Source: Candidatus Babeliales bacterium (GTDB lineage: Bacteria > Babelota > Babeliae > Babelales > JBFXEV01). Taken from it: a DNA stretch of 64,000 nt. Of the stretch, positions 10,610-58,399 are shown in pieces (position 1 is the stretch's first letter; each line of letters begins with the position of its first letter). Below the pieces are notes generated by a model. It had not been told where the DNA came from and did no database searches. It saw nothing but the letters and a program-made list of their open reading frames with translations. The stretch is taken from NCBI GenBank assembly GCA_050179755.1, contig JBFXEV010000001.1, positions 143,881 through 207,880 of the forward strand. Reading direction: 5' to 3'. The translations under genes were made by a program, and so were the position numbers.

Positions 10610-12901
10610 ATGAGCAAATATTTCAAACCACAACACATATTACTCGGTCTTATTGCGTCTTTTGCATCAACCATCAAAAGCGAGCACGCATGCGCACCCT
10701 TAGTTTGTGCAAGTGTAGTAAAGGCAGGTAAAGTAATAACTGACCAACTGATTGTCACTAATCCTACCATTGATGGCTGTGCAGTGCATACAATCACTCA
10801 GGCTGATTTTTTGCAAAATGGCACCTTAAGTAAAACCCTAATAATAACTGAACCAGGCTACTATAAATTTTGTGAAAACATAGATTTTGTAGCGCTTACA
10901 CAATTTGGTGCAGCGGTTATCATTGACACTGACGATATGGTTCTTGATTTGAATGGAAAGGTATTAAACCAAGCAAATAGTCCTACTATTAGTACTAGAA
11001 CCTCACACAGAGTTCCTGGTGTTCCTAGTTCAATTACGGGCATTATAGTCAACACTGGTCATAATAATGTAACAATCCTAGGCAACTATGGAGCAGTAAC
11101 TAACTTCTCACAACGTGGCATTTACGTGCAAGGTGGCAATAATAATATAACTATTGGAAATGACACACAACTGCTTATTACCGGTTGCGGCCATGGCACC
11201 CCCGTGAGCTTTGTTGATCAGACTAATAGTGGCGAGCAAGCAGTATTACAAGCTGGCTTACAAGTAGGAGAAATGCAATTCTTAACACCGTTCGGCTTTG
11301 AACCATCAAATGGTTTACTTAAAGGGCTCTCAGTAAGAAATGTTATTTTATCCGAGAACAATGCAGGATGTGCATTGGGTGATGGTTCAAACTACTTCTT
11401 TAACGATTGCACTATGTCATTCAATAGAGATACGCGACCAGTATGGCCAACTATCGGATATGGCTATTTTGGTTCAACTTTGGGAGCTGTCGTTTGCTAC
11501 GGATTGGCTTATTTTTCTAATCCCGATGGTTTGGGAATTGAAACACTTCAATTTGATAACTGTGACTTCAACTCAAATGTAGCTGATGCATCGATTGATC
11601 CTGAAACTTTTTCTGCGTATTGCGATAGCTTTAACGTTGCCGTCAATTTTTCTAACTTAAAAATATCCAATTGCCGTTTTAATAATAACAATGCAAAATT
11701 ACAGCAAAGAACGGATGTTACTCAATTCAATCAAACACGTGGTTGTGTAATCGGGGGTGGCACGGACATACTTCTGCAAGATTCAGAATTCTCAAACAAC
11801 CTAGGTGGTGGCTTAGTTGATGGATTAAACATCAGCGGTAAAATTCCTGTAAATAGCACCGCACAAGTCATTTCTCAACCAAAATCATTCACTATTAGAA
11901 ACTGCATATTCTCAAACAATAAAGCAAGCACCAATGGTGCCGTTATTGCAAATCCGGGAACTGCTGGATCAGGCAGCCAGGGAGCAATTGGCCAAAAAGC
12001 ACTTGATGTCGTAGGTTGCGTTATCAGATTCCCTCATGGCCTTTCTATGATTGATTGTGTAATTGAAGATAACACTGCCGAAATTCTTTCTACAGAAACT
12101 GATTACTTAGTATATACTGATGGAATCTTACTATTTGCAGATAATAATTTCCCTGATAGCCCAACAAACAACGTGGAAATTCGTGGCGCTAAAATATCCC
12201 GTAACAGAAATAATGGGGTACAAGGCACCTCCGCAGGGATAACTACATTAGATGGTCTTTGTGAAAATATTACTATCGTCGATTCGGTAATTACTGAAAA
12301 CAGCTTCCCTAATTATCAACCAAATTTCTTTGCGGCTGGTATTGATATTACTGGGATGACGCGAACACGCCCATCATTAGTATCAGTTATTAATTGTATT
12401 ATTAATAATCATGCATCGGCAGGTATCTTCACCTCATTACAACAAACCAATATTCAAGGCAATACCATTTCATTTAATACGTGGGGTGTAATATTAGGCT
12501 CATTCCAAGAAGAAGATGGTGGACCTATCGGTTATCCAATCGGCTCAAGCGTTCTTAATAATACGTTTTTAGGTAATGGCACAGCAGTTGAGGATCAACC
12601 AAGCCAAGCACTACCACCAGTATATAGCACCTCTCTTGTATCTAACAATCTAGCCTTTAATAATGAGCTAGGATACTTGGTGACCTATGAAGGCGATGTT
12701 TCTGTGCCAGTTGAATTTGGTACATTATCAGCATTTCCACCATACCCGCCATCAGTATTAGCTTCAAACATTGAAATTGTTCCAAATCCTGCAAACCAAT
12801 TCATTAGTGCAATTAGTTCACAAGATGCTTGTAAGGCTAAAAACGAAATTCAAGCATGCACTGGTACAAATAAAACCAAGAAAGCAAGAAGAAGCAAATA
12901 A
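10610..12901 (+). CDS. Large secreted right-handed parallel beta-helix (pectin-lyase-like fold) protein
   Basis: Signal peptide; ITEPGYY..ENI, LDLNG, repeated IxNCxFxNN strands; AAGGAG SD. Confidence 0.8.
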   Translation: MSKYFKPQHILLGLIASFASTIKSEHACAPLVCASVVKAGKVITDQLIVTNPTIDGCAVHTITQADFLQNGTLSKTLIITEPGYYKFCENIDFVALTQFGAAVIIDTDDMVLDLNGKVLNQANSPTISTRTSHRVPGVPSSITGIIVNTGHNNVTILGNYGAVTNFSQRGIYVQGGNNNITIGNDTQLLITGCGHGTPVSFVDQTNSGEQAVLQAGLQVGEMQFLTPFGFEPSNGLLKGLSVRNVILSENNAGCALGDGSNYFFNDCTMSFNRDTRPVWPTIGYGYFGSTLGAVVCYGLAYFSNPDGLGIETLQFDNCDFNSNVADASIDPETFSAYCDSFNVAVNFSNLKISNCRFNNNNAKLQQRTDVTQFNQTRGCVIGGGTDILLQDSEFSNNLGGGLVDGLNISGKIPVNSTAQVISQPKSFTIRNCIFSNNKASTNGAVIANPGTAGSGSQGAIGQKALDVVGCVIRFPHGLSMIDCVIEDNTAEILSTETDYLVYTDGILLFADNNFPDSPTNNVEIRGAKISRNRNNGVQGTSAGITTLDGLCENITIVDSVITENSFPNYQPNFFAAGIDITGMTRTRPSLVSVINCIINNHASAGIFTSLQQTNIQGNTISFNTWGVILGSFQEEDGGPIGYPIGSSVLNNTFLGNGTAVEDQPSQALPPVYSTSLVSNNLAFNNELGYLVTYEGDVSVPVEFGTLSAFPPYPPSVLASNIEIVPNPANQFISAISSQDACKAKNEIQACTGTNKTKKARRSK

Positions 12902-20178: not shown

Positions 20179-20673
20179 ATGAAGAAACTTGCCATTGCTC
20201 TATTATTTTGCGTATGCCCACCCCTGTATAGCGCGTCTAACATTATTCCCTTGGAAAAATTAATGTTCTATTCCATAGTTGCTGATAATGCCAAAGAAAA
20301 ACTAGCGCACGAATATCCGGAATATACTGCTTGGCTTTCTGATACTAACGCTCTTTTGCTCCTTAACTTTATTACTACAACAGATAAGCCTGTGATTATT
20401 AAATTCGGTGCTGACTGGTGCATGCCCTGCAAGAGCCTTGCACCCATTGTGCACGAAGCCGCTTTTGAATGCAGTAATGACGTCCTTATTATTGACATTA
20501 ATATTGATGATGCGCCTACGATCCGCCAAATGTTTGATATTCAAACTATCCCTACCTTAATTTATTTTAAAAATGGCAAACAAAAGGATCGCACCCACTC
20601 TGTTAGTAAAGCAACCCTACTTACTAAAATCAAACATTTAATTGACCTAAAAAGTCCTTTATTTACCCCGTAA
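20179..20673 (+). CDS. Exported thioredoxin family protein
   Basis: Signal peptide; WCMPCK, IPTL..FKNG. Confidence 0.88.
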   Translation: MKKLAIALLFCVCPPLYSASNIIPLEKLMFYSIVADNAKEKLAHEYPEYTAWLSDTNALLLLNFITTTDKPVIIKFGADWCMPCKSLAPIVHEAAFECSNDVLIIDINIDDAPTIRQMFDIQTIPTLIYFKNGKQKDRTHSVSKATLLTKIKHLIDLKSPLFTP

Positions 20674-20790
20674 AAATAGAAGACTTGTCCTGTATTAAAG
20701 CATTATTTCCGACGCAAGATTTGCCCAGATAACAATAAAAAGGTATAGTAAAAAGTAGATAGTAACGTAGTAAAAAAGTAGGAATATCTA

Positions 20791-21300
20791 ATGAATAAAA
20801 ATAGTATTTTTGCCCTTACCATGCTGGCAGCTACTTGGGGCTTAACATTAAATGTATGTGCAGGGCAAGCGGCTAACGTACAAGACATCAAACAATTAAG
20901 CGATGCTGGCATTCAGCCGCAAGACCTTAAAGTATATTTGCAAAAAAATGCACCCGATTTAGTAAAATTTGTGGGCACAACGCCTAGTAAGCTTGAAGTA
21001 CAATTATTTACCACTATTGCGCAATCAAAAAAGCCTGTAGTAGTTAAATTCTATATAAATGGATGTGGCCCCTGCAAGCAAATGGGTAGAATAGTGGAAC
21101 AAGTTGCAAAAGAACTTGGTGAAAGCATATTGGTAATTAATATAGAATCAACCGAAGCTACCCGCAATCTTATGCGCGTTTTGAATGCAAATGGAGTTCC
21201 TACGCTTGTTTTCTTTAAAGATGGCAAAAAAGTAGATCAATTTACCGGCACGCTCAGCGCACAAGAATTAACAGGTAAGCTTAAAAAGTTAGTGAACTAA
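20791..21300 (+). CDS. Exported thioredoxin family protein
   Basis: Signal peptide; GCGPCK, VPTLVFFKDG. Confidence 0.88.
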   Translation: MNKNSIFALTMLAATWGLTLNVCAGQAANVQDIKQLSDAGIQPQDLKVYLQKNAPDLVKFVGTTPSKLEVQLFTTIAQSKKPVVVKFYINGCGPCKQMGRIVEQVAKELGESILVINIESTEATRNLMRVLNANGVPTLVFFKDGKKVDQFTGTLSAQELTGKLKKLVN

Positions 21301-22654: not shown

Positions 22655-24007
22655 TTACGCTTTACCTTCCAAATGTTTAATAAGGGTCGCAATTATTGGA
22701 TTATTCAAACGATCAGCATTGCCTCCAGAATCAGTAATAATATATTGGGTTTTGCCTTGTTGCTTATTAAGCACGAGCGAAATCCAATGTTCCTCACCCT
22801 GAGGGTAGCCGGGAATTCCTGCCATAAGGCCGACCACAAAACCATGCACAAATGTATCAGCGCGTGCGTACCGATCAGCAATTTCACGAATTTTTTCATT
22901 TTCTCCAAATCCGCGAGGATCATCGAGCAATGGCACATTCTCAATAATGGTAATTCCATCAAAAGTTACTGGCATTGCATAAAGTAACCCGCCCGCCTTT
23001 TGCTCAACGTCTATTATTTGCTGTATTTGGTTTTCTTTAATCCAATCACCGTAATAATCTACTTGATTCATTACATTACTTATATTATACGATAATGCTG
23101 CACTAATCTGGGCAATGCCCTTATACTTTACCGGCTTGTTATCTACCGGAACATGCGTACCAAATTCTATTGTATCTTTCAACCGAGGCAAATACTGCGC
23201 AATAGCTTCATCTGATCTTACATATTCATTAAAATTAAAGTGTTCAAGACCCTCAATATCCCCGGAAATAGTCTGTTTGGAATTCTTAATAGCATCTATA
23301 AGTTCCCTTTTTGTGACAGGCTTTTTATAAAATCTATCATGTTCGGGAAAATCTGATGGCGCTTGCATGGTATTTGCCTGTATCTCAGTCATAATCTTTT
23401 GCATTAAATCTGGGCTAAATTTGTTTGTGAGAACACTTTGATAAAAACCTCGCATTTTTTCGCGAAACCTATCTTGCAACCCTTGATTTAATTGTTGTGC
23501 TGCCCGCGGCAAAGATGGCAGGTTTTCTTTATCTCTTGGATCATACAATAATTGCAATAACCTTTCATCGACTACCCATTTAATGACTCGTCGATACATA
23601 CTTTGCAAAACTAGAACCCGCCAACGCCCCAACGGATTTTGTTTACTAAATAATTCTTGCGCAAGAGAAAGGCTCGTCAAATCGGCTAACGCTGCTTTGC
23701 CAAATATAATTCGAGGAATAAAAATTGCATTTTTGAGAGCCTGATAACCGCAACTTGCTCCACCACCATATTCTGGCCCTGCAAACTGATTAAGAACTGG
23801 CAATTGAACAATTTCTTGACCCCATACAATACTTTTTTGAGGACTATCAAAAAAATGCTGTGCTCGCGCTTGTCCACTAGTTTTTAAGTGTTGCTCAAGG
23901 CTATAAAGTGAGCGTGATAAATTTTGTAATTGTTCAGAAATTTGCGCACAAACGGTGTAAGGCACTATTAAGAATAAACTCAATGTGCTGATAAAAATTA
24001 CTTGCAT
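22655..24007 (-). CDS. Secreted papain-fold (Josephin-like) cysteine protease candidate
   Basis: LNQ..GASCGYQALKN, GDW, HWISLV..YIITDS; paralog of 54905..56230. Confidence 0.65.
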   Translation of the reverse strand: MQVIFISTLSLFLIVPYTVCAQISEQLQNLSRSLYSLEQHLKTSGQARAQHFFDSPQKSIVWGQEIVQLPVLNQFAGPEYGGGASCGYQALKNAIFIPRIIFGKAALADLTSLSLAQELFSKQNPLGRWRVLVLQSMYRRVIKWVVDERLLQLLYDPRDKENLPSLPRAAQQLNQGLQDRFREKMRGFYQSVLTNKFSPDLMQKIMTEIQANTMQAPSDFPEHDRFYKKPVTKRELIDAIKNSKQTISGDIEGLEHFNFNEYVRSDEAIAQYLPRLKDTIEFGTHVPVDNKPVKYKGIAQISAALSYNISNVMNQVDYYGDWIKENQIQQIIDVEQKAGGLLYAMPVTFDGITIIENVPLLDDPRGFGENEKIREIADRYARADTFVHGFVVGLMAGIPGYPQGEEHWISLVLNKQQGKTQYIITDSGGNADRLNNPIIATLIKHLEGKA

Positions 24008-24122: not shown

Positions 24123-24151
24123 CAAAAGGGGCGCTTTGTGCGCCCCTTTTG
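24123..24151 (-). terminator. Intrinsic terminator downstream of nrdAB
   Basis: CAAAAGGGGCGC-tttgt-GCGCCCCTTTTG. Confidence 0.85.
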
Positions 24152-28437: not shown

Positions 28438-29562
28438 ATGAAACGTTCTTATCACTTACTTGTTACGTTGGTAACACTTAGTTATTCATTATCAGCAGTT
28501 GCTGGTTGCCCGTGCGCGCGTGAAAAACGTGCAATGCGCGCAAAACGAACTGCTGTTCAGCCAATGGCACCAGTAACTTCTGTTTCTCAATCAGTTGGCA
28601 ATATAGTTTCTGATCTTACACAGGGCAATGTAGTTGGAGCAACCGGTCAAGCAATTAGAACAGCACCTGATGCTACAGCATCTGTAGTACAACCCAGTAT
28701 GCCAAAAACAGAAAAAAGGCTAATGGAAGTTGAAGCGGCGCCTATGCCTAAGAAAATGAAAACTGAAGCTCCAGCACCAGCACCACAAGTCATGGAAAAT
28801 AATAGAATTGATCTCTCGAAACAGTCTGATTTTGATGCACTTATAACCAAACATCCACACGTTATCGCAGTGTTTACTACAACTTGGTGCGGCCCCTGCA
28901 AAAATTTAAAACCAGTTCTTGATGAAATACGTACAAGTAACAAAGATGTAATGTTTGTGTATGTTGATGGTGATGAGTATCCAGGGCTTGTTAGCAAATA
29001 TGCAAGCGTGGGATTCCCTACGCTCAAATTGTTTAAAAATGGCAAAGAAGTTGCTCAAGCAATTGGTGGACAATCAAAAGATGAAATACAAAGCTTAATC
29101 AATCAACATTTTAAAGGTGGCGTGCCAACATTTGTAATGGGTGATGCTACTGAATCAATAGAACAAGTGGCAGCTCCCGCACCACAACCTATTAAAATGC
29201 CTGCACCTGCTCCAGCACCAATGCAAGAATCCATGACAGCAAACAAAATAGTCCTTGTAAAAGACTCAGATTTTGATGGTCATTTAAGAAAAAACAAAAA
29301 CGTTATTGGCATCTTTACTACCACATGGTGCGGGCCATGTAAAACGCTTAAACCAGTACTTGAAGAACTTGTAGGATCAAATGCAAACGTAACGTTTGTC
29401 TACGTTGATGGTGATAGATTCCCAAGTCTTGTAAAAAAATATGCAAGCATTGGATTCCCAACACTTAAATTCTTTAAGAATGGTAAAGAAGTTGCACAGA
29501 CTGTTGGTGGCAGATCACGCGATGAATTGCAAAGCATGATTAACCAACATTATAGAGGATAA
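28438..29562 (+). CDS. Exported tandem two-domain thioredoxin with Pro/Ala/Met-rich linkers
   Basis: Signal peptide, two near-duplicated WCGPCK..GFPTLK.FKNGKEVAQ domains; AAGGAG SD. Confidence 0.9.
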   Translation: MKRSYHLLVTLVTLSYSLSAVAGCPCAREKRAMRAKRTAVQPMAPVTSVSQSVGNIVSDLTQGNVVGATGQAIRTAPDATASVVQPSMPKTEKRLMEVEAAPMPKKMKTEAPAPAPQVMENNRIDLSKQSDFDALITKHPHVIAVFTTTWCGPCKNLKPVLDEIRTSNKDVMFVYVDGDEYPGLVSKYASVGFPTLKLFKNGKEVAQAIGGQSKDEIQSLINQHFKGGVPTFVMGDATESIEQVAAPAPQPIKMPAPAPAPMQESMTANKIVLVKDSDFDGHLRKNKNVIGIFTTTWCGPCKTLKPVLEELVGSNANVTFVYVDGDRFPSLVKKYASIGFPTLKFFKNGKEVAQTVGGRSRDELQSMINQHYRG

Positions 29563-31325: not shown

Positions 31326-34300
31326 TCACGCACAACCAAATTTTTTCTTAATGCTCAGCGGTATTTCATTAGTATCATAATTGCCTTCAAAAAAATATGC
31401 TTGATCTGTTGCATGCGGTTCCACAATCACCAGCGACTCACCATTAACTTCACGAACAGTGAGCAAACTAGAAAATCCTATTTGCGATGCAGTCTGAAAA
31501 TGAGTTAATCTTCCGCAAGCATCGCGTTGTGCATAGAAAACTTGCCCTTCACGATTAAGTGTTGGAGTGCCATTTTTTACAACAAAATTATTTTCCAGGA
31601 ATAATGTTACATATGGTGGAACTGGCAATTGTACCGTTCTTTGATTTTGTCCCCAGCCTGGGTGCAATGGCACGCCATTATCTTGAATCAAATCTAAGTT
31701 CGCGCGGCCTGTAACTGGATCTGCTAATCCTGTTCCTGCATTAGATCCCGTTACCATTATCTCAAGACCATCTTTAAACGCTTGAGCAATAAAGATTTGA
31801 CGATCATCTGCATTATTTAAATCAAGACCTGTTGATGCCAAAATGTTATCATACCATTGATAATACACGGGATTGCCTAAATCGGGGCCAATCTGCAATA
31901 CACGCAATATTAATGAATAACAAAAATATGCATTTGCAGATATTGCTACTGGTAATACTCGTGATTGATCAGGCGTTTCTTGTGACCAATCGCCGGTAGG
32001 TTCAGTTATAAAAAGTAAGAACGCGTAATTCAGCCCTGTTACTTCCCGTAAGATCGGATCGGGGATTCCTTGCTCAAACATGTTTCTGCCAAGCATAGAA
32101 ATCCATAATTGTGAAAGAACCCATCGGCCATCCCAATTTAATCCTTCCATGCGATCTGCTTGATCAACATTTGGAATTGATCGACCATCATATGGCTCAC
32201 TTAGAAGTTTTATTCCGCGTTCAATTTCATGAGGGGACAAACCAATGTCTAGGCCCTTTGCCTGCAATGCCGTAAGACATGTTTCTCTCATAGTATTTGG
32301 GAACATATCTGAAGCATAATTTTGAAATTCTGCTTGCACAATACGGCGACCATCTCGTTGTAAATTTAGTTGACTCCAAAGATCTTGTATGTCTTGAAAT
32401 ACTAATTTACCTTGCTCATCGAGTTTCTGATTAATATCATAAAAGATAGATCCTACGCGATCATATTCAAAACTGGAACCAAAATTAGTCTGATCATCAT
32501 TAGACCAAATTCCATTCCACGCAGCAATAAAACCACAGGATGGATTTTGGAAATATCGTGAACCATCCGCACGATATTCTGCATTAGTGGGAACTGGCAA
32601 GGTTCTTGGAAAGACTAAACTTTCAAAAAACTTAGTTTCTGTTGCATCTTGCGGGTATAATCGATTAAAGTCAGGAGTTGTAATCGTATTATAAAAACCA
32701 CCGCTAATAGAATAAATATTATTCTTATTATCAAAACCACCATACATGAAAACAAATGGATTTGAATTCCAATTTACGGCAAATTCTTTGATCCTATTAA
32801 AAGGGAGCATGCCAAAATAGTTTGCAAAACCCTTAAGATATGCACCAATATCAGTTAACCAATCAAATGGTTGGCGAATAATGGTCACAAACTCAGGATT
32901 TTCATCATCAAACAAACGAAAATCAAATTCTAAACCATGTCGTTGATCATTACCTTGATAAATTTTGGTGAAAAAGAATGTAATACTCCCGTCTGGTTCT
33001 CGCACATAAATGGTCGATTGCTCTTTGCCACCTGGTACATTTTCTGTGCCAGTCTCTTCATCATAAATAAGAATAAGATTTGCAGCATCTTCAAACGCCG
33101 CATCGCGAGCTGCAACTGAAGTTACTTCTGGGGATAAAAATATTTCACAACCAGATTTTGATCTAACATAGGTAGTAATTAAAGCTGGTGAATAACTAGA
33201 TGCTTCAGGTGTAAAAAATGAAGTAGCTCTCCATACAGCACCGAGTGTAAAATTATCAATATCCCCGTCAAAACCATATGCTGTTTGCGAATTGCCAAAC
33301 ATCATAGCCGATCCATCTTTTGTTAAACTTGAACCGACTACTAGCCAATCTGACATAATTCTTCTATCTAGCAGCTTTCTTCTGTCATTTGCAAATTTGG
33401 CAACAACTTGTTTAGCAAAGTTTTGACGTTGCTCCTCAGACAGCGAACTTTCTGTGTGGTGCTTTCGAGCTTTCGTATCAACTTTTTTTGATGCACTATT
33501 TTTCAAAAAATTATTTTCACAATACAGCCCTGATCTATCGCCTTCTTTTACCGTAAACCTAAAATTGTAACTTGTATCACCATTACAATCATTAATCAGA
33601 TTAAAAGCGTCAATACCACCTGATGGATCTACACTGGTCGAATCAACATTAGGTAAATACGCATTAAATATTTGATCAAAAGGAGCCACAGATGATCCAA
33701 AAATATCATTAGAGCCTTGCAATGCTTTGACAAAAACAGCACGATTAAAAAGTCCATATGCCACGTTAATATCAGCAGTAACGTCTTGCCAAAACCAGTT
33801 TAATATGCCAATACCTTCTATAAAATCTGCTGGTAATGGCTCAAGCCCATTTTGTACTTTGATAATATAATCTATATAAGCCTGGTGACGACCATCAAGA
33901 AAATCAAGCATTGCAACCGGAAAATCAGTGCCTTGTTGACTCTCTATTTGCCCCTCTATCTGAGCATTAGTATAAGTAATACGCCGCGCATGCACGTCAA
34001 AAAATAAATCAGCGCCCACAATATACTCTGCTGTTCTTCCGGCAGCAGAAAGATAGGCAAATACTAGTGGCGCAAAGTTAACTTTAACATCGGGCTCGGC
34101 TGTCATATATCCAATTTGATACCAATAAGAGCCAACGCCGTGCTCTGGTCCCTGATTTGGCGTACCGATCACTATAGGCCGACCAAATTGATCATACTCA
34201 ACGTGCAGCGGCACGTTCACATCAACTGAGGGCAATGCGCAATTATTTTTATTCTTTTTACAACATAATTTATTGCTAGTCCCTGCACGTGTAACATCAA

Positions 34301-34385
34301 ATGCTTGCGCATCTGCATGTACAATAAATAAACTAAAAAATAAACTATATAACACGTTGATACTTAATAATTTGAAATGTTTCAT
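31326..34385 (-). CDS. Divergent penicillin acylase family (S45, Ntn-hydrolase) secreted protein
   Basis: VEYDQFGRPIV, GYMTAE, AAGRTAEY..D..AR; SDWLVVGSSLTKDGSAMMFGNSQ (beta-chain Ser); QNPSCGFIAAWN. Confidence 0.7.
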   Translation of the reverse strand: MKHFKLLSINVLYSLFFSLFIVHADAQAFDVTRAGTSNKLCCKKNKNNCALPSVDVNVPLHVEYDQFGRPIVIGTPNQGPEHGVGSYWYQIGYMTAEPDVKVNFAPLVFAYLSAAGRTAEYIVGADLFFDVHARRITYTNAQIEGQIESQQGTDFPVAMLDFLDGRHQAYIDYIIKVQNGLEPLPADFIEGIGILNWFWQDVTADINVAYGLFNRAVFVKALQGSNDIFGSSVAPFDQIFNAYLPNVDSTSVDPSGGIDAFNLINDCNGDTSYNFRFTVKEGDRSGLYCENNFLKNSASKKVDTKARKHHTESSLSEEQRQNFAKQVVAKFANDRRKLLDRRIMSDWLVVGSSLTKDGSAMMFGNSQTAYGFDGDIDNFTLGAVWRATSFFTPEASSYSPALITTYVRSKSGCEIFLSPEVTSVAARDAAFEDAANLILIYDEETGTENVPGGKEQSTIYVREPDGSITFFFTKIYQGNDQRHGLEFDFRLFDDENPEFVTIIRQPFDWLTDIGAYLKGFANYFGMLPFNRIKEFAVNWNSNPFVFMYGGFDNKNNIYSISGGFYNTITTPDFNRLYPQDATETKFFESLVFPRTLPVPTNAEYRADGSRYFQNPSCGFIAAWNGIWSNDDQTNFGSSFEYDRVGSIFYDINQKLDEQGKLVFQDIQDLWSQLNLQRDGRRIVQAEFQNYASDMFPNTMRETCLTALQAKGLDIGLSPHEIERGIKLLSEPYDGRSIPNVDQADRMEGLNWDGRWVLSQLWISMLGRNMFEQGIPDPILREVTGLNYAFLLFITEPTGDWSQETPDQSRVLPVAISANAYFCYSLILRVLQIGPDLGNPVYYQWYDNILASTGLDLNNADDRQIFIAQAFKDGLEIMVTGSNAGTGLADPVTGRANLDLIQDNGVPLHPGWGQNQRTVQLPVPPYVTLFLENNFVVKNGTPTLNREGQVFYAQRDACGRLTHFQTASQIGFSSLLTVREVNGESLVIVEPHATDQAYFFEGNYDTNEIPLSIKKKFGCA

Positions 34386-34417: not shown

Positions 34418-35611
34418 TTAGGCTGCCATAAATGCTTCTAAAAAGCCAAGCCATTTGGTCCATTCTGACCATAACAGCTTTTCATATGAATATTCAATAC
34501 GGTATAATGGCAAATAGATCGTTAAGCCTTTGGCATCACGGTATTTTTGGCTTACCGAATTTGCAATCACGGCTTTAGAAATAAGTGGCAATGTAGAACG
34601 AATTAAATCTTGCAAATATATTCTGCTTTTTATGTCTAAATTAATAGTATTAATATTAGTAAACACCGTATTTAGCCATTGATACAAATCAATATATGAT
34701 TCACCACCAAATGGCAAACATACACCTTTCTGTAATGTAGTTACCAATCCTTCACGAATGATCGCTTTATCTCTTTTCTTTAGTTCTTTACTATAAAATT
34801 GACTAAACAAATTTAATTTATTTACTACTGCATCAAGTTGTTTCAAATCAATCGCTGAAAGTGTGTACTCTTGATTTGTTTTTTTATAGCACTCTGCATA
34901 CGCTTTGACCATATGCTTTGCCAAATCAATTGGCTGGGGAGCACCTGATTTAAATGGCGCCAGCGTCAATGCATATTGATAACCATGCCCAGGAATAGTA
35001 TCTTCTGACGCCACATAATAATCTGCATAGCGGGCAAACGTATAAGCAACTTCTAATGAGCCCATTAAGCATGCATCACAAGCCACAAGATCAATTTTTT
35101 TGCCACCACGGAATTTATCACAAATCCAGCCAAATGCTGCAAAGCAATCACGATCAGTCAAATAATGGTGGGTAGTATCATCAAAACAAATACCTTTTAT
35201 TGCACTTGGCCTTCTGTTGAGCGGTCCGCTACCATGATCCCACAATACTACCGCAAAATGCTCTGATGGATAATCAGTATGCGCCCATTCCAAAGCTTCA
35301 ATAAACGTTGCAACATCACCACTGTCTTTTACTGTCACATCTCCAATAGGCACTAAGTTATCTTTTTCAACATAGTATTTAATGGTTTTCTTTTCTTCAT
35401 TTTCTCGTTTGACAGTAGTATATGCAATAATGTTTACATATTCATTAGAGCCAATTTCCATCATTTCTTTAAGATCAAGATCTGCATATTTTGCTAAGTT
35501 ATTATCTCCTGCAATATACACAAGAAAGGTCCAGGGCTTGTTATCAGCACAGATTAATGATGCCACAAAAAATAAATATATATTTACAAAACTGAATATT
35601 CTTTGGTTCAT
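34418..35611 (-). CDS. Clostripain family (C11) cysteine peptidase
   Basis: WTFLVYIAGDNNL, WDHGSG, ACDACLMG, VASED. Confidence 0.9.
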   Translation of the reverse strand: MNQRIFSFVNIYLFFVASLICADNKPWTFLVYIAGDNNLAKYADLDLKEMMEIGSNEYVNIIAYTTVKRENEEKKTIKYYVEKDNLVPIGDVTVKDSGDVATFIEALEWAHTDYPSEHFAVVLWDHGSGPLNRRPSAIKGICFDDTTHHYLTDRDCFAAFGWICDKFRGGKKIDLVACDACLMGSLEVAYTFARYADYYVASEDTIPGHGYQYALTLAPFKSGAPQPIDLAKHMVKAYAECYKKTNQEYTLSAIDLKQLDAVVNKLNLFSQFYSKELKKRDKAIIREGLVTTLQKGVCLPFGGESYIDLYQWLNTVFTNINTINLDIKSRIYLQDLIRSTLPLISKAVIANSVSQKYRDAKGLTIYLPLYRIEYSYEKLLWSEWTKWLGFLEAFMAA

Positions 35612-35678
35612 GCCTGCTCCTTAAGAATTAAGGCTTAAGAAATTTGCTATGCTTTCTAAAATTTCTATAATTACAATC

Positions 35679-36890
35679 TTACTTCTTCAAATATGCTTGC
35701 AAGAAACTTGTCCACTGAGCAGCACCGGTCCACAATAAATTCTTGTAAGAAGAGTCCATTACGGTACGCGGAAAATAAATAGTCATACCATATGATTTGG
35801 CATAATTTTTACTATTACAACGAGCAAGCACTGCTTTGGTAATAAGTGGTAATGTTGCAGTAATTAAGTCTTTCAAGGTTTTAGTATCTTGCGTACTTAA
35901 TTTCATAGTCACTATATTATTTTGTATATTACTAAGCCATTGATATAAATCAATATAATCCATGGTACCATAATGTATGGTTGCCGCTGGTGCAATGAGT
36001 GCGGCCAATGCTTGTTTAAGATTAGTTTTGTTAGGAGTTTTTAATTGCGAGATAAAGAATTGCGCTATCTTATTAAGATTAGTCACCACTGCATCAAGTT
36101 GTTTTAAATCAAGTGCAGACAGTGTATAATCCCAACCAGATGTTTTATAAGCATCGTCATACGCCTTTACCATGCTTTTTGCAAAATCAACAGGTTTTGG
36201 ATTTCCATTTTTAAGAGGTGCAAGCGCACGTGCATATTGATAACCATAACCAGGAATATTTTCTTCTGATGCAACAAAATAATCAACATACGTGCGGAAC
36301 GTATGGGCAACTTCAAGTGATGCCATTAAGCACGCATCGCATGCTACAATATCAATCTTCTTGCCATTGCGATACGTATTATTTACGTACTTAAATACGT
36401 CGCAACAATCACGATCAGTCAAAAAATGGTGCGTTGTATCATCCCAACATATACCTTTCCAACCTTGCGGGCTTCTGCCAGGATTCAAAGTTCCACTACC
36501 ATGATCCCATAAAACCACCGCTATGCGATCAGACGGATAATTAACTACCGCCCATTCCAGTGCTTTTTTAAAGGTTGCAACAGAACCACTATCTTCTACC
36601 GTGGTAGAGCCAATCTTTTTTAATGATCCTGGAAGAACTTCATACCGATTTGTTTGTTTTGGTTTGCCTACTTGTTTTTCTGTAGTGTAAGCAATGATAT
36701 GCGCATTTGCATTGGAGCCAACTTTCATCATCTCGCCCAAATCAAGCGTCACAAATTGTGCAAGGTTATTATCGCCAGCAATATAAACAAAGAATGTCCA
36801 TGGTTTTTTGGGGGCCTTGGCTGCCTTACAAGGCAGCCAAGCCATTGATACTAAACTAAGTGCTACTATTACTATTCTTCTTTTATTCAT
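35679..36890 (-). CDS. Clostripain family (C11) cysteine peptidase, tandem paralog
   Basis: WTFFVYIAGDNNL, WDHGSG, ACDACLMA, VASEE. Confidence 0.9.
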   Translation of the reverse strand: MNKRRIVIVALSLVSMAWLPCKAAKAPKKPWTFFVYIAGDNNLAQFVTLDLGEMMKVGSNANAHIIAYTTEKQVGKPKQTNRYEVLPGSLKKIGSTTVEDSGSVATFKKALEWAVVNYPSDRIAVVLWDHGSGTLNPGRSPQGWKGICWDDTTHHFLTDRDCCDVFKYVNNTYRNGKKIDIVACDACLMASLEVAHTFRTYVDYFVASEENIPGYGYQYARALAPLKNGNPKPVDFAKSMVKAYDDAYKTSGWDYTLSALDLKQLDAVVTNLNKIAQFFISQLKTPNKTNLKQALAALIAPAATIHYGTMDYIDLYQWLSNIQNNIVTMKLSTQDTKTLKDLITATLPLITKAVLARCNSKNYAKSYGMTIYFPRTVMDSSYKNLLWTGAAQWTSFLQAYLKK

Positions 36891-52061: not shown

Positions 52062-52229
52062 AGACACTCCTTTTGAATAACATACCGCTTTATAACTACT
52101 TGTAGTATACCAAATGGGAAAATCAAAGCGCAATGACCCAAAACGCTGCCATAGAGATTTGCCAACAATGAAATTGCGCTTTAAACTCTTAAAGGTGAAA
52201 CTCTCATAGATTTGAAAGGAACATGCCCC

Positions 52230-53435
52230 ATGAAAGATTCTAATCCGCAAGCCTGTTGGTTTAAACTTTCCGTTCTCTTTTTTTTTGCGCTATCTAAACC
52301 ACTACAGGCAAGAACACTTTTGATGATAGAAGGCAATACGGGCGCTGGCAAAACAACACTTTCTCGACTTATTGAACGTGAATTACATGCACATATTATT
52401 GAAGAGCCCATTGAAAAATGGCGCAAAGTTGGTGATACGGGCAACTTGCTCGATCTTCACTTAAATCAACGTAATCGTTGGGGCTACACATTCCAAACAT
52501 ATGCGTGCTCTACATTTATGCAAGCATGTTTAGAAGCAGATCAAACAATAGAACTTCATGTTTCAGATAGATCTGCCTATTCGGGTATATACTGTTTTTC
52601 GCGCATGATGATGGAAGAAGGTTCACTCACTCCGCTTGAATGGTATATTTATAAAGAACGTTTTGAATGGCTTACTGATTTACTCCCATGCAAAGCAGAT
52701 GGTTTTATTTATTTACGCACAACGCCAGCCAATTGCATGGAACGAGCAAATACTCGCCATAGACCAGAAGAGTCGGCATTAACTATGGATTTCTTTGAAC
52801 CGCTTCATCGCTTTCATGAGGAATGGCTTATTGATAAAAAAAATGTTGCCCCAAACTTAAAAGATATACCAGTATTAGTGCTTGATGGCAATCTTGATTT
52901 TAAATGTGATCCTTCAATACAAAAACAATTTATTGAGCAAATAAAAATTTTTATACAAGAAGTTAACACTTATAAACACGCAAACATTACCACACCACCA
53001 GAACAAATACCATTTGGAACAAATATGATAGATCATACCTCTTTTGCTGTACATAATTATGCACAAAGCCTCACGTTTTATGATGCAACGCTTGATTGCC
53101 TTGGTTATGAACGTATATTCACTATAGACATGGAGCACGTTCAAACAGCAGGTTACGGTACTAATGGAAAACCTTCATTTTGGATAAGCCCTATGGGCAA
53201 AGAGAATGAAGAAATTGGCAAAGCGCGCGGCGTGCATGTTGCCTTTTTGGCGCATTCAGTCGAAGAAGTGCAAGATTGGTATGCAAAATGTTTAGAACTG
53301 GGCGGCACTGATAATGGCAAACCAGGACCACGGCCTGAATATCACCCCGGTTATTATGGTGCATTTATTGTTGATCCTAATGGCTGGCGCATTGAAGCAT
53401 GCCTGCATGATTATAATCCCTCAACTAGTCGCTAA
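52230..53435 (+). CDS. Deoxynucleoside kinase fused to a VOC/glyoxalase domain, with N-terminal signal-like peptide
   Basis: IEGNTGAGKTT, EPIEKW, DRS, IYLRTTP; then MIDHTSF..HVAF..GGTDNGKPGPRPEYHPGYYGAFIVDPNGWRIEA. Confidence 0.88.
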   Translation: MKDSNPQACWFKLSVLFFFALSKPLQARTLLMIEGNTGAGKTTLSRLIERELHAHIIEEPIEKWRKVGDTGNLLDLHLNQRNRWGYTFQTYACSTFMQACLEADQTIELHVSDRSAYSGIYCFSRMMMEEGSLTPLEWYIYKERFEWLTDLLPCKADGFIYLRTTPANCMERANTRHRPEESALTMDFFEPLHRFHEEWLIDKKNVAPNLKDIPVLVLDGNLDFKCDPSIQKQFIEQIKIFIQEVNTYKHANITTPPEQIPFGTNMIDHTSFAVHNYAQSLTFYDATLDCLGYERIFTIDMEHVQTAGYGTNGKPSFWISPMGKENEEIGKARGVHVAFLAHSVEEVQDWYAKCLELGGTDNGKPGPRPEYHPGYYGAFIVDPNGWRIEACLHDYNPSTSR

Positions 53436-54377: not shown

Positions 54378-54893
54378 TTAATTCATGGTAAGAGCTTGTT
54401 TTAGTTCGCGCTTAAACTTATATTGGCCATTATCAAAAACCTCTAGTGAGGCTTGTTCACCCTTTCTAAGATTCACTGGAGCTTGATACCATCCACTGTT
54501 TATATGACGCCACTTAAAAGTTTGAATGCCAGAATGCTCTACGGTAAAAGTAACTGATTGGGGATCCCAATACGATTGATACGGCGCAATAGACGTTTTT
54601 GTCTTAGCATTTTTGCTATTTACCGTATCTGGATCTGTATAACTTTCCAATACCATACAGCGGGCCATATTGTATACCTTAAGTGAAGATTTAGACGCTT
54701 TGTCAAGCCAATACACCGCTGCAACAAAGCTGGCACAAAACGCAATAGTAACTAGCACCGATTCATCATCTTTTGCCATGTTCCATGCATAATCAAGTAT
54801 GCCTTGACCACGAGCATGAGACTCCATGCTTTTAGCTGGCAATGCAATGCTTGTTAAAAACACTATCATGCTAAGTTTTTTAATCATCTTCAT
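54378..54893 (-). CDS. Secreted hypothetical protein, shared-leader array member 4
   Basis: AKS-MES leader, then amphipathic and TM segments. Confidence 0.75.
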   Translation of the reverse strand: MKMIKKLSMIVFLTSIALPAKSMESHARGQGILDYAWNMAKDDESVLVTIAFCASFVAAVYWLDKASKSSLKVYNMARCMVLESYTDPDTVNSKNAKTKTSIAPYQSYWDPQSVTFTVEHSGIQTFKWRHINSGWYQAPVNLRKGEQASLEVFDNGQYKFKRELKQALTMN

Positions 54894-54904
54894 AAGCGTT
54901 CCTT

Positions 54905-56230
54905 TTACTTAATTTTAATACTAGTAAGATGCTTAATCAATGTCCAAATAATGCCATCTTTAATGCGAGAAGCATTAGCTCCAGAATCGGCAACACTATA
55001 TTCAATAATGCCATGATGCTTATGCACCACAAGCGTGATCCAATGCCGGCTTCCAGAAACCGATCCGGGCTTGCCGCTCATAAGACCAACCACAAAAGCG
55101 TGTATAAAATCATCTACTTTTGCAAGACGCTCAGCTATCTCGATAATTTCTTTATATTCTCCTTCACCTTGATTCAAGAGCGGCACGTTATCAATAATAG
55201 TTATGCCATCAAAATGAACTGGTAAATCTGCAAGCAATCCACCAACTTGCTGTTCATGCTTAAGTAAAAGGCCAATTTCATTTTCATTGACCCAATCACC
55301 TTGTGCATCAAACTTGTTATCAGGATGTGCTGCATTATACTGTTGAAGCGCTTCAGCTTTTGAAATTTCAAATATATGTTCAGCATTTATTGTATTTTCG
55401 GGCACATATAATGCAAGCGCCTCATCACTTTTTGCATAGGCCACAAAATCAAAATTCTCGAGCCCTTCAATATCACCTTTCATAATTCGCTGAGACTTTT
55501 TGACTGCGTCAATAAACAGAGCACGCGTGATAGTAATTTTTGTGCTCGCTTCTAAAGGTTGGCCCTCAAGTGCAGAGAATAATGCTGCCACTAATTGCGG
55601 GCTTAGCTCAGTTGCTAGCACGCCTTGGTAAAAGCCACGAATTTTTGTTTTAAAACGGTCTTGTAATTTCTGATCAAGATGTTGCGCCTCAAGTGGAACT
55701 TCTACATGCTGCACGTCATTATAAGAAATTAACAATGCATACAATTTTTGATCAATATGCCATTTGATCGCACGGCGATACGTATTTTCTAGCACTAATT
55801 TACGCCAACCGCCTTTAGGGTCTTTTTTATTAAATAACTGCTGTACAATAGAAAGATCAGTAAGCTGCGGTTGCCCTGCTTTGCCAGACAGCATGCGGCA
55901 TATATAGATAGCATTTTTTAAAGATTGATAACCACAACTTGCATCGCCACCATGATCAGCAGATCCATATTGATTAAGTACGTGCAATTGCTTAATAGTG
56001 GGCCCCCAAATGGAACCGTACACTGCACGATTAGTGCGCATTTGCTTGGCCGCATACACACCTGCTCCTGCAAGTGCGCCTACTGCAAGCAATGCACCAG
56101 AATGTTCTTTTGCAAAGTTTAATGCGCGATCAAAATAATTCTGATCGCCATCCCCTGAATCCATAGCATGAGCTGGGAATGCTATGCACCATAGAGATAT
56201 AAACAAGATAATGTGTTTAACTATATTCAT
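54905..56230 (-). CDS. Papain-fold (Josephin-like) cysteine protease candidate, array member 3
   Basis: AHA-MDS leader; LNQ..DASCGYQSLKN, GDW, HWITLV..YSVADS; paralog of 22655..24007. Confidence 0.65.
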   Translation of the reverse strand: MNIVKHIILFISLWCIAFPAHAMDSGDGDQNYFDRALNFAKEHSGALLAVGALAGAGVYAAKQMRTNRAVYGSIWGPTIKQLHVLNQYGSADHGGDASCGYQSLKNAIYICRMLSGKAGQPQLTDLSIVQQLFNKKDPKGGWRKLVLENTYRRAIKWHIDQKLYALLISYNDVQHVEVPLEAQHLDQKLQDRFKTKIRGFYQGVLATELSPQLVAALFSALEGQPLEASTKITITRALFIDAVKKSQRIMKGDIEGLENFDFVAYAKSDEALALYVPENTINAEHIFEISKAEALQQYNAAHPDNKFDAQGDWVNENEIGLLLKHEQQVGGLLADLPVHFDGITIIDNVPLLNQGEGEYKEIIEIAERLAKVDDFIHAFVVGLMSGKPGSVSGSRHWITLVVHKHHGIIEYSVADSGANASRIKDGIIWTLIKHLTSIKIK

Positions 56231-57315
56231 TTTCGTACCTCTGTCTCATCATCTTCTAACTCATCACAGAAAGCATCTAGCTCTGCATCGCTTAACTTGC
56301 AAATTGCTTTAATAACATTACGCGTAATTACGGGGCGATACTGCTCAATTTTTTTAGGATCAACCAGATCGCGTATTTCATCTTTTGCTTGAATTTGTAT
56401 TTTACGATCTTGCAATAACGCATCTATGCTGCTCAATCGAGCATCTATTACCTTTTGAATCTCTTGCTGTAGTGACTGCATTGCGTTTGTATCTTCTTGT
56501 GCTACTTCAAGTAAATTTGCGCAAACTACTTTGGTCATCTTAAAATGATTAAGTGAACAAAACAAGGACTGTTCAAGCATGCATTGAACTGCCTGCGCAT
56601 TACCCTTTTTTACTGCTACATACAATGCTGTTTGGCCACTTGAATTCGTTAGATCAATTCGAGCGCCCCGCTCTAGAAGTTGGGGCAGCAATGCACTATG
56701 CCCTTCTTCCAAAAGCATATGTATCGCTGTATCACCATCATTAGTTTGCGCATTGAGGTCTACATGTGCTTTGCAAAACAACTGCACCACGTCGGCAGCA
56801 CCAGTTCGCGCTGCCCAGTGCAACGGCGTGCAACCATCTGCATCTTTTACATACTGCCTTTGTACATTTTCAAAAATAATTTTTGCTAAGTTTGCACGAT
56901 TAAAAAGAGCTGCAAAATGCAATTGCGTAAACCCATGAAAATCCTCGGGTTGCAAATGTGCGCAATCGGCAAGAATAAATGTATCAATTTTTGCATCATC
57001 TTCCACATAAGAACTTGCAAGATCAGACTCTTTTATAAGAGCTACCAGTTCACTTTTAACGTAGTCTACGGTAAGTAATTTTTTGCTCTCTAAAGCTTGT
57101 GTAACTCGCGATTGTCTTTGAGCATTGCGCTCATGCACTGCTACCTGTGGAGTATGTTTTATTGATGGCTTAAACACAGAACTAACAGCCCTGCTAATCC
57201 TCATTTTTAAGCGACCAAATAAACCCTTATCACCGTTGCCTGAATCCATAGCGCGGGCAGGGAAAACAATACAAAATAAGAATAAAATAAGGGTGATTTT
57301 CTTAAAAATATTCAT
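56227..57315 (-). CDS. Ankyrin repeat protein, array member 2
   Basis: ARA-MDS leader; GFTQLHFAA, GCTPLHWAA, GDTAIH, GQTALYVA. Confidence 0.9.
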   Translation of the reverse strand: MNIFKKITLILFLFCIVFPARAMDSGNGDKGLFGRLKMRISRAVSSVFKPSIKHTPQVAVHERNAQRQSRVTQALESKKLLTVDYVKSELVALIKESDLASSYVEDDAKIDTFILADCAHLQPEDFHGFTQLHFAALFNRANLAKIIFENVQRQYVKDADGCTPLHWAARTGAADVVQLFCKAHVDLNAQTNDGDTAIHMLLEEGHSALLPQLLERGARIDLTNSSGQTALYVAVKKGNAQAVQCMLEQSLFCSLNHFKMTKVVCANLLEVAQEDTNAMQSLQQEIQKVIDARLSSIDALLQDRKIQIQAKDEIRDLVDPKKIEQYRPVITRNVIKAICKLSDAELDAFCDELEDDETEVRK

Positions 57316-57334
57316 TTTTGAAACGCCCTTATCA

Positions 57335-58399
57335 CTAATTATTGCTGTTATTAATTGACGATATTGGTTCTATACCCATTAATGCTGCTCGCACATTTTG
57401 CTCAACAGCTTCGCGGTAAAGCTCATCAACATTCTCCGCTTTCATAAAATCAAATGTTCGCGCAACGCCAGGAATTCCATGAACATGCCTCCAAAATGCT
57501 GCCCCTAGATCAAATTCAATATCCGGATTTTCAGTAAGAAATTGTCTTAGCATATTAAGTCTATAATCAACAATAACGGGAACCAACTTGGCCAATACTC
57601 TTGGCCTTGTAGCAACAGGAATATTTACGCATAATTCCTGAAACCATTCAAATGGGCACATTGCCACCAATTGCTCTAATGATGATTCACTCTGAACGTA
57701 TGCTAATTGACACACATTTGAAATATCTTCTGGCAAGAATGAAAGAATTTTGCATATAACGTTATCTGGCAAGTCAATTATTTTTAATACTTGGTATGCT
57801 GCATCAAATCGAGCCCCAGCCTCCAATGAACCATTGCTTGCGGGAGTAAAAGATGCGTTTTCTAATAAAACTTTAATTAGTTGGCAGTGCTTGTCAGTTG
57901 GAGGTGGCAAAACAATGTAGATCATACTCTCAATATTTGATCTATTAATTTTATACCCGCAATTAAAAAAGAAATCCATTACCTTAACATCTCTCTTTTC
58001 TAGTGCCCGCACAAGAGCCCATTGAGCTTCTCTAGAATCAATGTCAATCTCACCATCTCTCATAATTTGTTTGGCAAGATCAAAATTGTGTACTTTTAAT
58101 GCATTGGCAAAAAGCTCACCCCATTGCCGCCGGTGCAACTCTTGTTGTGCTCGCATGCGATCGAACTCCCCACCACGTCGCTCTTGTTCAAGCCTTTGTT
58201 GACGGTTCTGATACCAGTCATAGCATACAATGGCTAACCCCAATGCACCCGTAACACTAGCTATTATTACGGGATGTTCTTTTGCGATATTCCATATACG
58301 GCCAAAAAAGCCTTGATTATTATCTTGCTCCATGCCGAAGGCAGGTTGAGCAACACACATTACAGATAAAATAAGGGTTATTTTCTTGAAAATATTCAT
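57335..58399 (-). CDS. Degenerate ankyrin protein with F-box-like motif, array member 1
   Basis: AFG-MEQ leader plus TM; ankyrin-like helices; DLPDNVICKILSFLP. Confidence 0.7.
   Translation of the reverse strand: MNIFKKITLILSVMCVAQPAFGMEQDNNQGFFGRIWNIAKEHPVIIASVTGALGLAIVCYDWYQNRQQRLEQERRGGEFDRMRAQQELHRRQWGELFANALKVHNFDLAKQIMRDGEIDIDSREAQWALVRALEKRDVKVMDFFFNCGYKINRSNIESMIYIVLPPPTDKHCQLIKVLLENASFTPASNGSLEAGARFDAAYQVLKIIDLPDNVICKILSFLPEDISNVCQLAYVQSESSLEQLVAMCPFEWFQELCVNIPVATRPRVLAKLVPVIVDYRLNMLRQFLTENPDIEFDLGAAFWRHVHGIPGVARTFDFMKAENVDELYREAVEQNVRAALMGIEPISSINNSNN

Follow-up and report, generated by a model that had tools for sequence, protein, structure and literature searches.

What kind of cysteine protease is encoded by a Babelota bacterium at one locus of a 64,000-nucleotide stretch of DNA (contig JBFXEV010000001.1 of Candidatus Babeliales bacterium, positions 143,881 to 207,880; hereafter the window), and on what substrate might it act? 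The gene, copy 1, encodes the protein P0001 and has a paralog in the same window, copy 2, encoding P0002 (Table 1). A first-pass annotation, made from the letters alone, had presented the pair as a candidate family of secreted, Josephin-like proteases of ubiquitin or ubiquitin-like modifiers (Ub/Ubl). We consider it probable that P0001 is a stand-alone, circularly permuted Ulp1-like protease related to clan CE, predicted to be exported to a protist host, and likely a Ub/Ubl isopeptidase.

Both reading frames are open on the minus strand. The residues singled out by the annotation, Q74, C86, GDW (G320-D-W322), HW (H407-W408) and DS (D426-S427), are found where it placed them, the last pair leaving 24 residues between D426 and the C-terminus; this motif observation exceeds chance by far. 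The paralogy also holds: P0001 and P0002 share 46% identity across 386 alignment columns (E 2e-118), and Q74, C86, H407 and D426 of the former pair with Q87, C99, H396 and D415 of the latter in the pairwise alignment. Scanned as single sequences against Pfam and NCBIfam, neither protein gave a relevant match.

The family itself is not a new prediction. Pagnier et al. 2015 (PMC4378268) proposed that Babela massiliensis has a "circularly permuted Ulp1-like peptidase"; they described the domain as always joined to an AAA ATPase and termed the permuted form unique to that species. The protein P0137, annotated "Ulp1-like desumoylating protease fused to AAA ATPase", heads one row of their alignment. 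A profile built on the 10 closest relatives of P0001 (A1), which contains no Babela sequence, aligns with residues 24–388 of P0137, insert included (44.6 bits, single-sequence E 4e-16), so that P0001 is a stand-alone member of the Babela domain family; by direct BLASTP the link between P0001 and P0137 is marginal (E 0.006). The Q..CG(Y)..A..N, W, G.W....EI, HW and DS blocks come in the same order in both, together with a homologous long insert and an N-terminal signal-like leader. On the other hand P0001 has a single protease domain, belongs to a different clade and shows no AAA match in the Pfam scan, which places it in the domain family but outside the AAA-fused subfamily. P0001 is thus a new stand-alone member of an already predicted family; what is new here is the range of this family (136 of 261 genomes), a confident papain-fold model, and an insert present or absent at the place of the CE segment VR-1. 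In the literature we found neither an activity test nor a further treatment of the family, subscription papers and bioRxiv supplements being largely outside this search. The protease domain is also joined to AAA ATPases in L019, L062, L063 and L066, as in P0137; the best NCBIfam likeness of P0137 is to PAN/CDC48 models, far below cut-off, and it carries three protease repeats, two of them apparently inactive.

The kinship with clan CE comes mainly from sequence profiles. With a profile of 22 insert-free cores (the compact-core profile), 12 of the 17 rows obtained among PDB sequences are CE enzymes and none is a Josephin. The deubiquitinase (DUB) CidB comes out at E 3e-5 with its halves swapped—profile 165–198 on chain 126–158, profile 11–44 on chain 172–205; Ulp2 (E 0.035, profile 5–77 on chain 194–269), RickCE (E 0.009) and SENP1 (0.015–0.055) follow, and XopD is also listed. 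The His/Asp half alone finds CidB (3.7e-5) and RickCE (3.8e-5), while the Cys half alone reaches SENP8 157–206, last helix included, at a weak E of 0.62: the region of W129-R130 thus weakly matches the old C-terminus of the CE fold. Only insert-free profiles gave any match, that of the long members giving none among PDB sequences. By Pfam, the 85 compact members hit C48 14 times (best 6.9e-5), ElaD 3, RickCE 2 and Josephin once (best E 0.011); 60 His halves hit RickCE 5 times, C48 4, ElaD 2, LupA 2 and Josephin 2; and 66 Cys halves hit C48 4 times, adenain twice and Josephin never. These member-wise scans side with the CE families, though a Josephin signal is faintly present.

With the CE/C48 enzymes (Wolbachia CidB DUB, RickCE, OtDUB, LupA, XopD, SENP1, SENP8/NEDP1) P0001 shares the best profile matches of both halves, a Trp where the core begins, the HW, and the DS on the following strand. 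It differs by having Cys ahead of His, new termini, and an insert within the new joint: the order that defines clan CE according to PMC7396840, His-Asp then Gln-Cys, is reversed, and the Ulp1 Gln/Cys block precedes the W-HW-DS block, as in the permuted Ulp1-like family. A link between clans CA and CE through circular permutation has been proposed, as stated in PMC7396840. EschOTU, from the same source, sets a precedent: this bacterial DUB is active even though its fold is permuted with respect to its own family, but it is an OTU enzyme permuted in the opposite direction, to His-before-Cys. Canonical-order CE domains are rare in the class, with only 4 loci in 3 genomes among 8 C48 matches (L192, L193, L195 and L199, all large proteins); these loci identified no donor of the permuted family, and hhalign of the family against four canonical CE domains is weak. 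L070 was considered as a duplication intermediate of the permutation and rejected, as it consists of two tandem Cys-His-Asp domains.

The predicted structure of P0001 (predicted local distance difference test, pLDDT, 92.4; predicted template modelling score, pTM, 0.89) has a papain fold, which with the motif order backs the proposed papain-fold protease of Cys-His-Asp order. Josephin-, OTU- and CE-type structures tie as its neighbours, with the Josephin BpJOS among the tied top rows. The lowest root-mean-square deviations belong to CE rows—LupA 2.8 A/99, OtDUB 3.2 A/107, CidB 3.3 A/112—over the His/Asp half. By Foldseek against PDB and viral models no row reached E<=0.001, the top viral rows being giant-virus proteins at E 0.002–0.004. 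Feature matches in the Atlas (0.76–0.80) with giant-virus clusters, RickCE/C48 and ElaD are leads only.

Could the same fold carry out another reaction, e.g. that of a YopJ-type acetyltransferase, of a RavZ-type Atg8 deconjugase, or of a Gly-Gly-selective protease acting on a host protein other than ubiquitin? We regard this as unlikely, though it is the better of the alternatives. Clan CE also holds acetyltransferases and viral processing proteases according to PMC7391069 and PMC10318531; PopP2 is the top Foldseek row for the compact model (weak, E 0.027) with RavZ further down, and one Cys half matches YopJ at 0.12 and two match adenain at 0.008. All these matches are however non-significant, and the conserved His-aromatic motif and the UIM/NZF domains fused to some relatives point instead to ubiquitin-type substrates. 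An aromatic after His is described in PMC7391069 as limiting substrates to Gly-Gly ends, and its enrichment among DUBs and Ubl proteases is given there as 477-fold. Pfam finds a UIM in 3 of 85 compact members (best 0.0028). A UIM-like pattern, composed after examples had been viewed, occurs in 5 of 146 representatives (shuffles: mean 0.52, max 3), and its strict form in 4 of 146 against none of 783 open reading frames (ORFs) of the genome. P0094 carries three RanBP/NZF-type fingers (Pfam 5e-11), and other relatives have ankyrin repeats or AAA domains attached; P0001 has no extra UIM, NZF, ankyrin or AAA domain.

The UIM and NZF fusions favour ubiquitin over the "desumoylating" label, at least for part of the family, so that ubiquitin seems a likelier substrate than SUMO. 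If P0001 is active, ubiquitin would be the leading candidate, SUMO or NEDD8 a serious second choice, and any other substrate rather improbable. The Ub/Ubl-directed activity put forward by the annotation is retained as likely.

The Josephin label raises a second alternative, in which P0001 would be a bacterial Josephin that has diverged and may, as a clippase, cut ubiquitin after Arg74, with the insert as an enlarged alpha2/alpha3 arm. P0001 does show the Josephin arrangement of Cys, His and Asp/Asn with an aromatic after His, a trait reported as common to many DUB classes (PMC7391069), and shares with BpJOS, PcJOS and PaJOS (Josephins/ubiquitin clippases; 10.1101/2024.07.24.604956) the Cys-His-Asp threading, the HW and tied top structural rows; the S1 element of these enzymes, as described there, also sits between the Cys helix and the sheet. 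The threading is thus real, but by descent the sequence profiles favour a permuted CE (Ulp1/C48) enzyme: five profile searches of PDB sequences returned no Josephin chain at E<=10, where CE chains reach 3e-5; each of the member scans has more hits to CE families than to Josephin; and the cut-off of the Josephin profile (PF02099) is passed by none of the 261 genomes of the class, nor by P0001 or P0002. The top sub-threshold rows of this last search are members of P0001's own family. In comparison with the bacterial Josephins, the Josephin signal of the family is weak and sub-threshold and its insert is far bigger and optional. We hold a Josephin origin to be quite improbable.

In UFSP/ZUP1 proteases, an Asp stands immediately ahead of His. 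Descent from these enzymes, suggested from a CGY motif, is not supported as the best account: P0001 has HW with Asp 19 residues after His, and UFSP1/2 and Mug105 are only mid-list fold rows. ZUFSP is described in PMC7391069 as lacking the aromatic after His.

Finally, copy 1 could be a duplicate whose catalysis is weak or idle and which binds instead of cutting, given that it is likely lineage-specific, without counterpart at the matching position of the same-genus genome G121, and that inactivated members are known (L060 with Cys to Ser, a degraded third paralog, Babela), but the catalytic positions are unbroken in both copies despite 54% divergence, which makes this reading very improbable. 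The third, divergent paralog lies in the same genome outside the window, G000:C1:1417443-1418612 (+); Ser replaces its catalytic Cys and its HW/DS is degraded, and it is likely a pseudo-protease.

We retain a permuted Ulp1-like protease as the probable reading. Its insert is mostly helical in the model, in agreement with the annotation. In 69 motif-selected domains the spacing between W129 and W322 is 8–29 residues in 27 and 122–216 in 42, with none intermediate. A quick tree that omits the insert columns, and that has little support in its deep branches, shows at least 8 changes between the two states. A well-supported clade of one genus comprises 3 long and 2 short members, including a long/short pair 42–46% identical on either side of a clean 155-residue gap. 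The alignments of LupA, OtDUB and XopD with the model do not begin until the insert ends, CE chains starting at model position 261–263 (residues 318–320). The alignment of XopD begins at its residue 335, which is the first after VR-1 (PMC4961225). In the model, the insert would thus occupy the place of the substrate-binding VR-1 segment of CE enzymes, the permutation joint sitting on the S1 side. The alpha2/alpha3 arm of Josephins is described at the same location and likewise as S1 (10.1101/2024.07.24.604956); since both positions coincide with that of the insert, both analogies predict modifier binding. As in the annotation's view of a substrate-binding domain, the insert likely lies on the substrate-binding side. 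Searched by itself in the Atlas, the insert gave no usable look-alike.

The way the enzyme might work can be sketched as follows. Its signal peptide would direct P0001 to Sec export. In the permutation, the former C-terminus would have become fused to the former N-terminus; within this joint the insert of 180 residues, replacing VR-1, would hold the distal modifier or the next unit of a chain. The tail of the tag would thread beneath W322 and W408 to the triad C86-H407-D426, with Q74 as the oxyanion hole, and cleavage after the Gly-Gly end would free ubiquitin or a Ubl tag from host proteins. By analogy with other intracellular bacteria, this could keep the bacterium or its vacuole clear of degradation marks.

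How wide is the family? While the Babela form was called species-unique, the compact-core profile finds matches in 136 of 261 class genomes, the motif order being checked in only part of them, and in 100 of 189 high-quality genomes; A1 finds matches in 71 of 261, at loci of which some have the long middle part and others lack it. The compact-core profile recovers 1337 clusters at E<=0.001 and at least 607 clusters (50% identity) at E<=1e-10. In 146 new representatives out of the best 150 clusters—picked by profile score, so that the counts are not independent of the motifs—Q is kept in 140, C in 141, H in 145, D/N in 145 and S in 146; an aromatic follows His in 145 (W in 143), and Cys stands ahead of His in all 143 scorable ones. 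Among viral contigs, two strict motif patterns gave no confirmed relative. A hydrophobic N-terminal window is present in 122 of the 146, against 8 at an internal control, and P0001 has, by hydropathy, a leader of this kind that is likely a signal peptide; secretion, as annotated, remains likely. According to PMC6561590, Babelota live as parasites inside protist cells and have many proteins with signal peptides. Some loci (L069:735-4133, L070:155-2389, L212, L213) have two protease domains in tandem within one chain, or neighbouring paralog pairs with poly-Ser tracts.

Table 1. Coordinates of the two copies, of the features along copy 1 and of adjoining elements (window numbering).
Feature	Coordinates	Strand	Basis
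Copy 1 (P0001, 450 aa): leader, then a permuted Ulp1-like protease domain (probable) that stands alone and carries a long insert	22655..24007	-	
Likely Sec signal peptide, residues 1-21, hydrophobic core, ends ...TVCA	23945..24007	-	hydropathy alone (Kyte-Doolittle, KD, window 2.56)
Q74, predicted oxyanion-hole Gln	23786..23788	-	aligns with Ulp1 Gln block, Additional file 13 of PMC4378268
C86	23750..23752	-	model and family motif counts
W129-R130, end of Cys half	23618..23623	-	weak profile alignment, SENP8 C-terminal helix (E 0.62; 0.016)
Insert, residues 140-318, mostly helical, bridging both halves; predicted S1 (distal modifier) binding module	23054..23590	-	
W322 in G-D-W-I...Q-I; counterpart of Ulp1 'WLND.VI', start of CE core	23042..23044	-	structure and published alignment
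H407-W408, predicted general base and aromatic Gly-Gly gatekeeper	22784..22789	-	
D426-S427, predicted third triad residue, next strand	22727..22732	-	model and family counts
Terminator-like hairpin between nrdB and copy 1	24123..24151		
Copy 2 (P0002, 441 aa), intact paralog with ortholog in same-genus G121	54905..56230	-	
Copy 2 neighbour; its domain is fused to the protease C-terminus in relatives P0003 and P0004	54378..54893	-	

The hairpin upstream of copy 1 is followed by an extended -10-like TGTTATAAT at 24055-24047 (by eye, a consensus match only), which suggests that copy 1 is a separate transcript. In G121 the position of copy 1 is taken, between the same flanks, by ankyrin-type genes, and only a copy 2 ortholog (59%) is present; both copies and this ortholog form one clade (SH-aLRT 99). 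As the slot differs and only copy 2 has an ortholog there, copy 1 likely arose by a duplication specific to this lineage; it has a different leader and likely occupies a variable effector slot. Behind its signal peptide lies a leucine-heptad stretch (23837-23944, -), without clear match among the ORFs of its own genome; by eye, similar post-leader stretches occur in the relatives P0013, L027, L070 and L216.

Around copy 2, four tandem genes (54378-58399, -) begin with one common leader (phmmer E 7e-9 to 6e-6), behind which stand domains unrelated to each other—protease, ankyrin, unknown—and this leader is found again in the matching G121 cluster; it could possibly represent a shared export signal or an exon-like shuffling of effector domains. 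The unknown domain of the copy 2 neighbour, about 105 residues long, has a second free copy at G000:C1:1192512-1192895. Ankyrin and WD40 proteins abound in the window (36 ORFs scanned). It also encodes two tandem clostripain-family (C11) proteases (34418-36890, -) and proteins of 1019 and 763 aa (31326-34385, -; 10610-12901, +) with no Pfam match at E<=0.001, all with signal-like leaders; thioredoxin-domain proteins, again with such leaders, near ribonucleotide reductase genes (20179-21300, +; 28438-29562, +); and a deoxynucleoside kinase joined to a glyoxalase-like domain (52212-53435, +), kept in G121.

A broader and much more tentative proposal is that these proteins are phylum-wide cutters of ubiquitin chains bridging clans CE and CA, with catalytic blocks of CE type in a Josephin-like threading, in which a plug-in S1 module, gained or lost as a unit, would switch the specificity for modifier or linkage, some being coupled to UIM/NZF readers or to an AAA unfoldase in a manner resembling a bacterial p97-DUB. 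The same-genus pairs with and without the insert offer a clean natural test of the role of the S1 module in Ub/Ubl specificity, and a solved structure would inform the proposed permutation link between CA and CE. A CE-type sequence with a Josephin threading, a wide range and an on/off S1 insert makes a good experimental target, and DUBs of new specificity also serve as reagents. For the Babelota themselves, this family, which falls under no Pfam or NCBIfam model that matched its proteins, is likely a main tool against ubiquitin-based defence in protists.
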